Source: Fibrobacteria bacterium (GTDB lineage: Bacteria > Fibrobacterota > Chitinivibrionia > Chitinivibrionales > FEN-1185). From it: a DNA stretch of 64,000 nucleotides. A model generated the notes under the pieces. That model had not been told where the DNA came from, searched no databases, and saw only the letters and a program-made list of their open reading frames with translations. Of this stretch, positions 6,803 to 10,517 are shown piece after piece (position 1 is the stretch's first letter; each line of letters starts with the position of its first letter). The translations under genes were made by a program, and so were the position numbers. The stretch spans positions 1-64,000 of the forward strand of contig JBBIGR010000015.1 of NCBI GenBank assembly GCA_037447435.1. Reading direction: 5' to 3'.

Positions 6803-7720
6803 TTACTGCTGCGCGTCCATCTTGATTTTCCGCATTCTCAAAAACAAAACCAGCGTGTGAATATAGGGGAATGTCAGCACGGCCAAAACCACGGGCGCGA
6901 ATAGCCGTGCCAAAGAGGTTGTAATTTCGATTTCGCCCTGCGCTTCGAATATTTCACGGTTAAAATCGGGCTCGCAATCGACATCGAATCTGTTTTGCGG
7001 CGTATCGACAAGCACATTCTTGAATGCCAAAAAATAGCCGAACGCCTTGCCGGTTTTTGCCGGATCGTCCAAGCCGAACGTCGCAAACGCTTTGAATTTT
7101 GTAAACGATACGATTTTAAAAAACCGTAACGCGGACCGAAGCATCCACGAAAGGATCTTCTTTCGCCAGAGTTCGTTACCCAGAAAAACGTAAATACGTT
7201 TGAAGAGCGGCGTTTTAAAAAAACCGAACAAACCCTTTTTCGGCGTTTGGTCGGATTCTTTTTTTTCCGTCTGTTTCGGGGGCTTTTCTTTTTTATCGGG
7301 CTTTGGCTTTGTTGTTTTTCTATTGTCCGGTTTTGCATCATGACGGCTTTGCCGAACGTCTACGGGAGGCACGGACGCTTTTTCCGTTACAAAGGGCTCA
7401 CTTGCCGGTGTTTGCTCCCGGGTTTGCCCCTGCAAAGGAACCTCAGGTTCAGGCGGACGCGAATCGGCGGACGCTTTTTGCGGGTTATTTTCAAACGAGA
7501 ATACCGTGAAGCGATGCAATAGAATTATCGAGGTCGCATCGGCAACGGGATCGAAAACGCAGTCGAAAATCCACGGATGAACAAACGAGAAATGCAATGA
7601 CGACAGGACGAAATCGTCTTTATACCGCGCTTTGCAAAGGAATTTGATCGGGGAAAACGACACAAACAGCGCAAAGAGGGCGACAAAGCCAAGGATAATG
7701 AGCAAAATCGACCAAAGCAT
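6803..7720 (-). CDS. hypothetical membrane protein (DUF2953-like C-terminal region)
   Basis: N- and C-terminal TM segments, Pro/Lys-rich linker, FGLDDPAKTG..G motif. Confidence 0.65.
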   Translation of the reverse strand: MLWSILLIILGFVALFALFVSFSPIKFLCKARYKDDFVLSSLHFSFVHPWIFDCVFDPVADATSIILLHRFTVFSFENNPQKASADSRPPEPEVPLQGQTREQTPASEPFVTEKASVPPVDVRQSRHDAKPDNRKTTKPKPDKKEKPPKQTEKKESDQTPKKGLFGFFKTPLFKRIYVFLGNELWRKKILSWMLRSALRFFKIVSFTKFKAFATFGLDDPAKTGKAFGYFLAFKNVLVDTPQNRFDVDCEPDFNREIFEAQGEIEITTSLARLFAPVVLAVLTFPYIHTLVLFLRMRKIKMDAQQ

Positions 7721-7745: not shown

Positions 7746-8576
7746 TTATCCTGCCGTATAGGGCGTACCGGCCGGCGTCAGGGGATCCGTTGCCTTTTTT
7801 AAACGCATTCCGCTTTCGGTTATTATCTGGTCGACGATGATATCGTGATAGGCAAAAGGCAAGCGTTCGGTTTCGGGCATGATCTGGCAATCGAATGCTA
7901 TTGCGTAAATGGGAATGCGGCCTTTCATGTCTTTGAGAAACCGGTCGTAGGCGCCCTTGCCCCTGCCCAACCGGGCCCCGTAAATGTCGAAGGCGACGCC
8001 GGGCGTAATAATAACCTGAATATCGCTTTTAAAGAAATTATTCCGCTTTTCCTTGACCGGTACCATGATGTTGTTGCTGCCCAATTCGATGTCCGTGTCG
8101 AGGTTGGTTATTTCGCCGATGCCCATAGACGCGTCTTCGTTCATATACGGAATAACGACTCGTTTCCCCGCTGCGATCAGTTTCCGTATTTCTTCGCGTG
8201 TCGCGACTTCGGAACCGAGTTCAACGTACATCATGACCGAGCGGGCATTGCGATACGCGTCGTCGTTTCCCAAATGTCCCCATATGGCCGCGGTTTTATC
8301 GTCCCTGTCCTTTTGGGGCATTTCTTTGCGAACGGCAAGATATTTTTCGCGTATGGCGTTTTTCTTGACAATCACTTCCTGATCGTAATTGGGCATGGGT
8401 TCGTCGATGCGGGCGATTTCGTCGATTTCGCGGCGCACCTTGTCGCTATAGACGCGGACTTTGGCCAGAAAACGGGCGGTCTGGCGCAAAATGTTGGGAA
8501 TTTCCTTAGACCCGAAAAAGAGGAGAATAAGGACCAGAATGACCGCTATTTCCGAAAAATCAAGCCCCATGTTCAT
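7746..8576 (-). CDS. fusion: TatB/TatA-like N-terminal domain + 5-formyltetrahydrofolate cyclo-ligase
   Basis: aa1-55 FSEIAVILVLILLFFGSKEIP + amphipathic helix; remainder K..IR...L..R, SEVAT, PGVAFD..GARLGRGKGAYDRFL, HD..VD.IITE. Confidence 0.85.
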   Translation of the reverse strand: MNMGLDFSEIAVILVLILLFFGSKEIPNILRQTARFLAKVRVYSDKVRREIDEIARIDEPMPNYDQEVIVKKNAIREKYLAVRKEMPQKDRDDKTAAIWGHLGNDDAYRNARSVMMYVELGSEVATREEIRKLIAAGKRVVIPYMNEDASMGIGEITNLDTDIELGSNNIMVPVKEKRNNFFKSDIQVIITPGVAFDIYGARLGRGKGAYDRFLKDMKGRIPIYAIAFDCQIMPETERLPFAYHDIIVDQIITESGMRLKKATDPLTPAGTPYTAG

Positions 8577-9336
8577 GACGACGCTCCTGCGCGGTAAACG
8601 AGACGAGAATGCTTATGCCGTAAATTGCCAATAAGGGAATTGCCAGGAAAAACTGCGACAAGACGTCGGGCGGCGTCAGAACCGCTGCAACGATGAATAT
8701 CACCACAATCGCATGACGGACTTTGCTTACAAGAAACTTGGGGGTGATAAGCCCCATTTTCGTGAGCACCCACGACACCACGGGCAATTCGAAAATAGCG
8801 CCGCAGGCAAGGCTCATTTTAATAAGAAACGAAATATATTCGGTCGCCTTGAAATACGGTTCGATGATGCCGCCGCCGAACGTGGCGAGCACCTTGATCA
8901 TGAAGGGAATCATGAAATAGGCAAATGTCAACCCTGCAAAAAACGAAAACGTCGAGGAAATCACGATGGGCAGTATCATTTTTTTTTCTTTACCCAAAAG
9001 ACCGGGCGAAATGAACGCCCAGATCTGGTAAAACACAAACGGCATGGATACGACGATACCGCCGACAACGGCGATTTTCATGCTGAGCATGACCGCTTCG
9101 GCCGGCGCGGTAAAAATGAGATGCGGTTTAGGATTGGTAAATCGAAGCGGAAAAACCATAAGCAAGGTAAAGATTTTTTGCCAATAAATGAAGCACGGTA
9201 TCGCGCAAATAGCAATGGCAAAAACGCTTTTTATCAGCCTGCTTCGGAGTTCCTCAAGATGGTCGAGAAAATTCATGCCCTCGCGGGCAGAACTTTTATC
9301 CTTCTTTCTTAATTTCCGAATTAGGCTTGCTATCAT
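8560..9336 (-). CDS. tatC: twin-arginine translocase subunit TatC
   Basis: [35 protein letters not shown]. Confidence 0.96.
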
Positions 9337-9514
9337 TGGCCTTTTCTTCCTCTTTCAGTTTTGCTGCTTCTTTAACGCCGTCGCTCGATGCTTTTTTAAA
9401 TTCCTTGATGCCCTCGCCGAGACCTTTTGCCAATTCCGGTATTTTTTTAGCGCCAAAGAGAAGTACAATGACTAAAAGAACAATTACCCAATGAAACGGA
9501 CTCATGGTACCCAT
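9296..9514 (-). CDS. tatA: twin-arginine translocase subunit TatA/E
   Basis: [34 protein letters not shown]. Confidence 0.95.
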
Positions 9515-9710: not shown

Positions 9711-10517
9711 ATGAATTACGAACCCCAGCACAGTGCCGAAAGTTTGGTTTACGGAATACATCCGGTTTCGGAACTCATTTCCACTAAAATCAGAAATATC
9801 GACCGCATTTATTTCGACAAAGAGCGCTCCAACGCCCAATTGTTCGAAGTGGTGAAGCTTGCGCGCAAGGAACGGCTTCCCTATCAGATGGTCCCCACGT
9901 TAAAGCTTGACCAACTATGCGGCAGCTCGAAACATCAGGGTGCGGTTGCGATTTGCACTGCGGTCGAGTACACGACCGCCGAAGATTTGATGACAAAACT
10001 CGAAAAGGATAATCGGCCGGGACTGTTGGTATTGCCGGCATCGATCGAAGACCCCCGCAATCTCGGCGCATTGATACGGACCTGCGTGGCGTTTAATGTC
10101 GACGGGCTTTTGCTGGAACGTAAAAACACCGCGCCGATAGGACCCACGGTCGCAAAAACATCGGCCGGAATGCTGGAGCATTTGCCGCTTGTAAAGCCGA
10201 AAAACCTCGAAGGTCTGGTAACGGATTTGGCGAAAAAGGGTTTCAATATCGTCGGCGCCGAAAAAGGCTGCTCGGCAAAACCCCAGGACATCGATTTCAA
10301 AAAGCCCACGGTCATCGTCATGGGCGGAGAAAACCGCGGCATACCGCCCTATTTGGCAAAACAATGCACCCATATGGTAGGAATCCCCATCTCAAGCCGG
10401 ACGCCGTCGCTCAACGTATCGGTGGCCACCGCGGTTTTCCTTTACGAATGCGCACGGCAACGGGAATTTGATTTCGGCGAAACCGCGTCGTCGAACCGAA
10501 TTGCCGGGCACAAATAA
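9711..10517 (+). CDS. rlmB: 23S rRNA Gm2251 methyltransferase (TrmH/SpoU family)
   Basis: YGIHPV, HQG, DPRNLGALIRT, GGENRG, SLNVSVA. Confidence 0.92.
   Translation: MNYEPQHSAESLVYGIHPVSELISTKIRNIDRIYFDKERSNAQLFEVVKLARKERLPYQMVPTLKLDQLCGSSKHQGAVAICTAVEYTTAEDLMTKLEKDNRPGLLVLPASIEDPRNLGALIRTCVAFNVDGLLLERKNTAPIGPTVAKTSAGMLEHLPLVKPKNLEGLVTDLAKKGFNIVGAEKGCSAKPQDIDFKKPTVIVMGGENRGIPPYLAKQCTHMVGIPISSRTPSLNVSVATAVFLYECARQREFDFGETASSNRIAGHK

Follow-up and report, generated by a model that had tools for sequence, protein, structure and literature searches.

In Escherichia coli, the truncated protein TatB1-51 of the Tat (twin-arginine translocation) machinery still supports native export, and a quality-control, chaperone-like role is given to the region beyond residue 51 (PMC9436932, in the part available). 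In TatBC structures the stretch that follows the amphipathic helix is mobile, and cargo was not seen in ordered contact with the membrane part (PMC13323110, as far as its available text goes). 5-Formyl-tetrahydrofolate (5-formyl-THF) is formed as a side product by serine hydroxymethyltransferase (SHMT) and is removed by 5-formyl-THF cyclo-ligase (MTHFS, YgfA/Fau; bioRxiv 2021.12.01.470718, available part). The window analyzed here is a stretch of 64,000 nt from a Fibrobacteria bacterium of the order Chitinivibrionales (assembly GCA_037447435.1, contig JBBIGR010000015.1, positions 1 to 64,000). It contains three genes on the reverse strand in the order tatA-tatC-X, of which X, a tatB::ygfA(fau) gene, encodes a TatB-like membrane module continuing into a complete cyclo-ligase domain (Table 1). 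The fusion is real and phylum-wide, and is an apparently undescribed TatB variant built of two known parts. It is read here, with a probability of about 0.5, as a two-function protein in which the enzyme fold also serves as the folded soluble appendage of TatB; that both halves are functional is held with high confidence.

Residues 3-59 of X match Tat families, in agreement with the first-pass annotation, which had described a Tat A/B-type module at the N-terminus. The best NCBIfam model is TIGR01410 (tatB; E 1e-8) at a sub-threshold score, and judged by its sequence the module is classed as TatB-like, not as a member of TIGR01410. The best matches of aa 1-66 among solved structures are gapless and are TatB chains (9e02_F, 9e03_B, 2mi2_A); in the gapless alignments to 2mi2_A and 9e02_F, E9 of X falls on E8 of E. 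coli TatB. X has one hydrophobic segment (aa 5-21), and the AlphaFold2 (AF2) model gives a transmembrane (TM) helix at aa 7-20 and a long helix at aa 22-58. Among the fused proteins the hinge and the long amphipathic helix are conserved together with E9, which is present in 91% of the 91 rows of alignment A1 and in at least 90% of the phylum-wide alignment A2. Tyr43 in the amphipathic helix occurs in 91/91 fused rows of A1 and in none of seven TatBs from split operons, which represent one evolutionary event. The region that is mobile in TatB is replaced in X by a folded domain with predicted local distance difference test (pLDDT) values of mostly 90-98. The cognate TatC keeps H26, E29, F108, L113, E117, T221 and Q228, whose numbers exceed by a constant 14 and, for the last two, 13 those of H12, E15, F94, L99, E103, T208 and Q215 of E. 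coli TatC (PMC13323110, available part), with two exceptions, Ala at the equivalent of M205 and Leu at that of Y100. In a crude scan of the 5962 open frames of the source genome (G000, 99.57% complete), four Tat substrates of the RRxFLK/V type were predicted (C9:34383(-), C26:45873(+), C27:58182(+), C34:6072(-)); three of these predicted substrates share N-x-x-I-x-N-x-R-V after the signal and may be one family.

The remainder of X is a whole YgfA/MTHFS domain, as had been proposed: PF01812 is matched over profile positions 1-186 (E 2.8e-36, 125.6 bits, cut-off 27) and TIGR02727 is passed with 128.2 bits (cut-off 84.9). The AF2 model of the enzyme domain has a mean pLDDT above 90, and the top 12 Foldseek matches of the predicted domain are all MTHFS-family chains, 2jcb aligning with a TM-score of 0.91 by target and a root-mean-square deviation of 1.9 A. 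K72, R76, E123, P192, R202, G204, G206, D211 and D245 are invariant in 177 fused rows, and R202, G204, G206 and D211 occur also in 20/20 unfused rows of the same order. The active-site positions, common to the alignments with 1ydm, 1sou and 2jcb, are all present in X. We take the RLGRGKGAYDR loop (aa 202-212) to be the ATP/phosphate-binding loop, and assume active-site roles in the cyclo-ligase for the helix-1 K/R, the Glu, the PG, the RxGxGxGxYD loop and the HD. GKGAYDR, flagged in the first-pass annotation as noncanonical, was considered as a sign of altered function and rejected as ordinary variation: the Aquifex cyclo-ligase reads GFGKGYYDR, and position 209 varies among relatives (A, C, S, Y, V, F) whether or not they are fused. 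In G000, PF01812 matches X alone, and tatA is the only other gene with a PF02416-like match, which answers the question whether a stand-alone tatB or ygfA lies elsewhere and bears out the proposal that the TatB-type subunit of this organism carries a cytoplasmic enzyme domain. SHMT is present in G000; the formiminotransferase N-domain was not found there.

Both Pfam domains are present in 120/120 homologues among those listed of 186 found. Of 69 named loci 50 are fused (49 titled Fibrobacterota, one from an unnamed taxon), and tatC lies directly upstream of the fusion in 48 of these 50. A further locus search gave five fused loci, all Fibrobacterota, and two TatB-only matches, and a record titled Raymondbacteria (L248) matches over residues 1-254 of X. 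The fusion was absent from 14/14 loci in which the cyclo-ligase comes from a different or an unnamed taxon, a light test of presence outside the phylum. A literature search based on listings and abstract openings yielded no description of a TatB/cyclo-ligase fusion, in line with the remark in the first-pass annotation that the fusion was not known to be described.

Distribution was tallied by hand from profile-match tables of 296 genomes of the phylum, with about 170 loci read directly; the unpublished G253 was left out, leaving 295. The fusion occurs in 135 of the 295 (18 of 21 families). The others are 49 unfused genomes outside genus g42, 100 genomes of g42 with a shortened form, and 11 that are unresolved or lack the enzyme. 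TatC is present in 135/135 fused genomes, and among the 49 unfused genomes outside g42 it is absent from 22 and present in 27; several of the 22 are less than 90% complete, while G015, G042, G044, G293 and G226 are 97-100% complete. On a quick, midpoint-rooted enzyme-domain tree (152 rows; rows under 140 aa and duplicates dropped) the fused label needs nine changes, at least seven of them forced by starred branches, and the unfused G015, G226, G278, G293 and G211 are placed inside or beside fused groups.

Several loci depart from the common arrangement. In L033 and L039 tatA is followed directly by tatB::ygfA at a locus without tatC, and in G046 tatC and the fusion lie on different contigs. 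Fused proteins of only 229-242 aa with enzyme helix 1 deleted are encoded in L106, L121, L122 and L163 (genera g41, g43, g48); their TatB helix runs almost straight into enzyme helix 2 and may replace helix 1. In L181:339-1238 (G248) the fused gene is interrupted within its ATP loop by a stop, either real or an assembly error. Family f13 (L151, L152, L153, L162) has a second type of tatAC, which is divergent, and G208 has both this type and the fused operon.

The two halves have separated more than once. The 22 TatC-less genomes outside g42 have lost the TatB part and keep an unfused enzyme, still flanked by rlmB and/or the DUF2953 gene in most of the loci read. The G211 locus (L155:2135-2799) no longer has the cognate tatC, and a frameshift separates its TatB part from the enzyme. 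In split operons, tatA-tatC is followed by a short tatB. Eight TatC rows of split-operon genomes, including a second G052 copy without adjacent TatB and one genome of another order, form one branch (support 100) within the TatC group of the order of X, which points, on sequence grounds, to one fission spread by horizontal transfer. The TatC columns lost in these operons (9/67, mostly at the start of TM1) also represent one event only. Since E. coli TatB1-51 supports export, the split TatB stub and the module of X are both long enough. In fused genes the TatB part has a ratio of nonsynonymous to synonymous substitution rates (dN/dS) of 0.03-0.27 and the enzyme one of 0.09-0.17, indicating purifying selection in 8/8 pairs computed.

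Signs of a second role for the enzyme fold come from G237 and G238, which have two cyclo-ligases, a free intact copy near rlmB and a fused copy in the tat operon. The fused copy no longer has the helix-1 K/R, and its loop is RMSHRKDFYAN where RLGRGKGYYDR would be expected; it keeps the equivalents of E123 and R202. P0147, a protein without genomic context, is 64% identical and has the same altered loop. If the residue roles assumed above are right, the loop of these three copies would be dead. The fused domain of G237/G238 has a dN/dS of 0.11, from 30 synonymous differences and 13 non-synonymous ones (Fisher p 2e-11), compared with 0.22 for the free copy and 0.009 for TatC. The fused copy is a candidate Tat pseudo-enzyme, and the pattern is as would be expected if an ancestral two-function protein had split its jobs after duplication. 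No further dead-loop relatives were found in metagenome contigs, and genome contigs gave only G237/G238. At a second tatA-tatB locus without tatC in G084 (L185:1722-2806), the enzyme part is decayed and carries an in-frame stop, which looks more like decay than retention.

A second line of evidence is residue conservation. F241 (97%) and Y243 (98%) are conserved in 177 fused rows of the type found in the order of X and occur in 0/20 unfused rows of that order (seven genera). Of 51 columns at least 90% conserved in the 177 fused rows, 21 are kept in all seven unfused genera, among them every active-site position; R139 and F181 are kept in one unfused genus each. Because F241/Y243 and Y43 vanish when the halves part, the domain is suggested to be more than a passenger. 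Mean-field covariation over 259 fused sequences (effective number 172) was noisy, and the pair Y43-P240, ranked 32nd among implausible pairs, was not used. The proposal that the fold is reused as an accessory domain is supported by the fusion-dependent F241/Y243 pair and by a dead-loop copy under purifying selection.

In the mechanism proposed, aa 1-58 of X likely take the part of TatB within a TatABC translocase, and the rest is likely a membrane-tethered folate-repair enzyme. By analogy with the (TatBC)3 structures, the TM helix would set E9 on the T221/Q228 site of TatC and the amphipathic helix would clamp signal peptides, which would bring three enzyme domains per core complex to the cytoplasmic rim. 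The enzyme domain would remove SHMT-made 5-formyl-THF, and the two activities would be chemically uncoupled. The fusion probably arose once, in the ancestor of the phylum, by read-through between neighboring genes. The weakest step is that the domain may have taken the place of the post-helix region of TatB and gained a non-catalytic job, such as docking, stability or folded-cargo contact; on this proposal the dead-loop copy would have been kept on TatB after duplication because of that job. A bolder version, with the Tat core ringed by three cyclo-ligase folds as a working part of the translocase that docks via the aromatic patch and contacts or proofreads cargo, and with a dedicated pseudo-enzyme in one lineage, is speculative and rather unlikely.

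The two-function reading has to be weighed against that of an inert passenger, by which a read-through fusion of neighboring genes was fixed because whatever follows the amphipathic helix is tolerated by TatB, each half works without using the other, and the aromatic patch and the dead-loop copy reflect only the need of a tethered domain to fold; this account is possible but less probable. A number of observations weigh against a second role and mostly fit a passenger. The halves survive alone: besides the enzyme of the 22 TatC-less genomes, in seven genomes of three families a bare TatB of 53-54 aa comes after tatA-tatC, and its persistence in those families implies that Tat can do without the appendage. 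The many changes of the fused label are read most simply as one old fusion followed by many losses, on midpoint-rooted quick trees without an outgroup. The enzyme has also joined other partners. In genus g40 an RNase D-type 3'-5' exonuclease with HRDC is fused to it (the open frames, from 13 genomes, are about 585-700 aa long; domain scan on two), G086 has a related HRDC-like part, and in family f11 the cyclo-ligase is N-terminal on a polytopic membrane protein of ~800 aa with 7-9 predicted TM helices. An AF2 model of aa 22-260 (145 sequences) gives the amphipathic helix pLDDT values of 52-64 at a predicted TM-score of 0.77; a fixed intramolecular contact of helix and domain is not predicted, and the values would fit an unpacked helix. 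Outside the order of X, fused copies read L in 67% at position 241 and have no aromatic at 243, and the dead-loop evidence comes from one lineage of three sequences (two genomes of one genus and P0147). On the other side, a passenger could be shed by a stop behind the amphipathic helix, as happened once, yet G237, G238 and P0147 keep all ~165 residues and the altered loop, and aromatics of an exposed type at 241 and 243 reach 97-98% only when fused.

Regulatory coupling, in which ATP or folate binding tunes Tat export and ties the export of cofactor-bearing proteins to one-carbon status, would fit the physical linkage, which is found across 18 of 21 families together with an intact active site, and the dead-loop copy, with its E123 and R202 equivalents, might still bind folate; it is considered improbable, as the Tat-bound copy lost its ATP loop after duplication, fission and repeated loss were tolerated, Tat recruitment is driven by the proton-motive force (PMC13323110, available part), and a rigid domain-helix link is not seen in AF2. 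The suggestion in the first-pass annotation that folate metabolism, or ATP sensing, is tethered to the translocon by the fusion is not supported, given an enzyme that persists without Tat in 22 genomes, a split-operon TatB without enzyme and the lost ATP loop of the Tat-bound duplicate. Equally hard to credit is an anchor account, in which the N-terminal module mainly fixes the enzyme to the membrane, selection acts on the membrane localization of the cyclo-ligase, and TatA and TatC alone perform export. The module does score below the TatB cut-offs (TIGR01410, 35.6 bits, or 39.1 for aa 1-66, cut-off 56.5; PF02416, 18.2-20.2 bits, cut-off 21), which counts against the TatB assignment, and the enzymes of genus g42 resemble anchored forms: 18/18 sampled have a shortened TM helix that lacks Glu where E9 would stand, seven of the 18 sit in genomes without TatC, and their dN/dS is 0.07-0.14 in three pairs, a fourth being saturated. 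Selection may here act on membrane tethering as such, and the TM protein of f11 likewise fits an anchor. In the g42 loci L149:2966-3547 (G189), L226-L241 and L150 the helix-1 K/R of the enzyme is missing too. Against an anchor, the full module is found only with TatC (135/135), it is deleted in the 22 TatC-less genomes and frameshifted in G211, its E9, hinge and amphipathic helix are conserved, and split operons keep it beside tatC without the enzyme. An assembly or sequencing artefact joining two genes has a negligible probability. The assembly is metagenomic, and for the read support sought across aa 55-75 there is one contig of run X1 (depth 8), which spans the stretch without difference and, as the possible source of this DNA, may not be independent; the same stop-free architecture is shared by the 120 listed homologues and by 50 named loci. 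The two-function reading is retained at the probability given at the outset.

Within the locus, the 17-nt overlap of tatC and X is real. The first-pass annotation had each gene overlapping the next; the gene order and this overlap stand, while an overlap of tatA and tatC hangs on the choice of the tatC start, which gives an overlap if placed at 9336 and a 19-nt gap if placed at the ATG at 9276. Solved TatC chains start aligning at the latter ATG, which may be the true start. A conserved internal start yielding free enzyme was considered and rejected, a start codon with a Shine-Dalgarno sequence being found in the linker window of 18/111 fused genes and in a control window of 14/111. A promoter and terminator scan of the locus gave consensus matches only. 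The DUF2953 gene is a conserved neighbor in the order of X, including unfused loci, with Tat present or not, and the rlmB-like gene is, by synteny, a locus marker throughout the phylum. The DUF2953 product has a long middle part rich in Pro/Lys/Glu.

Table 1. Features of the tat locus in the window, with corresponding loci in related genomes (locus coordinates are prefixed by the locus name)
Feature	Position	Strand	Remarks
tatA	9296..9514	-	72 aa; TIGR01411 76 bits (cut-off 53.9), PF02416 70.5 bits
tatC	8560..9336	-	258 aa counted from first ATG; TIGR00945 197.3 bits (cut-off 132.7)
tatB::ygfA(fau) fusion gene (X)	7746..8576	-	single stop-free open reading frame, 276 aa
Shine-Dalgarno-like AGGAG	8584..8588	-	7 nt before ATG 8576, within coding end of tatC
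Predicted TM helix, aa 7-20 of X	8517..8558	-	AF2 helix; Glu9 at 8550-8552, equivalent of E. coli TatB E8
Hinge and predicted amphipathic helix, aa 22-58 of X	8403..8513	-	AF2 helix H22-58; includes Tyr43
Linker, aa 59-71 of X, variable	8364..8402	-	conserved internal start absent
MTHFS/YgfA domain, aa 72-254 of X	7815..8363	-	PF01812 profile 1-186; Foldseek to 2jcb
RLGRGKGAYDR loop, aa 202-212 of X, intact	7941..7973	-	conservation in own-order alignment
F241-x-Y243, fusion-dependent aromatic pair of X	7848..7856	-	conservation in own-order alignment
DUF2953 gene, next downstream of X	6803..7720	-	PF11167 25 bits (cut-off 22); synteny
rlmB-like SpoU methyltransferase, divergent	9711..10517	+	PF00588 and PF08032; synteny
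Split tatA-tatC-short tatB loci	L129-L133, L144, L145, L147		three families
Fused dead-loop copies (G237/G238)	L126:2359-3144, L127:2359-3144	-	plus P0147
Free intact copies (G237/G238)	L120:3877-4455, L128:3047-3616		
g40 and related fused loci	L146:2780-4573, L148:2644-4395, L160:2525-3523	-	
f11 locus	L136:3711-6080	+	weak DUF2142 match; genome without TatC
f11 locus	L137:1555-3999	-	weak DUF2142 match; genome without TatC

The fusion corrects annotation across the phylum, the genomes of which look TatB-less since the gene is named a cyclo-ligase. It indicates that TatB can carry a folded 21-kDa domain directly after its signal-clamping helix, which bears on the function that TatB's membrane-extrinsic part has for folded cargo, a matter on which the available parts of PMC9436932 and PMC13323110 disagree. 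The phylum offers a natural series of fused active, fused dead-loop, bare 53-54-aa TatB and anchor-only enzyme forms, and a folded marker on TatB may help cryo-electron microscopy of the small core complex.

Compared with described TatB proteins (TIGR01410, PF02416; E. coli 2mi2 and 9dzz, Nitratifractor 9e02 and 9e03), X shares the N-terminal TM helix with Glu at the E8 equivalent, the Gly hinge, the long amphipathic helix and the company of tatA and tatC; it differs in the order tatA-tatC-tatB, in having a folded enzyme domain of 183 aa in place of the mobile tail, and in its scores below the family cut-offs. Compared with MTHFS/YgfA-Fau (PF01812, TIGR02727; 2jcb, 1ydm, 1sou, 3hy6), it has the whole domain, the same predicted fold and the invariant active-site set, whereas its tethering to the membrane via a Tat subunit, and the dead-loop fused paralogue of one lineage, set it apart. 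X also carries an order-specific FFKSD and PFxYHD signature that is absent from unfused relatives. The same architecture appears in an ESM Atlas cluster of 72 members with the automatic label '5-formyltetrahydrofolate cyclo-ligase family/mttA/Hcf106', the commonest phylum of which is Fibrobacterota; the source databases name these proteins plain cyclo-ligase, hiding the TatB part. The nearest parallel to an extra domain on a core subunit, present three times per (TatBC)3 complex, is given by the periplasmic inserts in TatC of M. xanthus and N. salsuginis (PMC13323110, available part), but those inserts are periplasmic and belong to TatC, whereas the domain of X is cytoplasmic, is carried on TatB and is a housekeeping enzyme.

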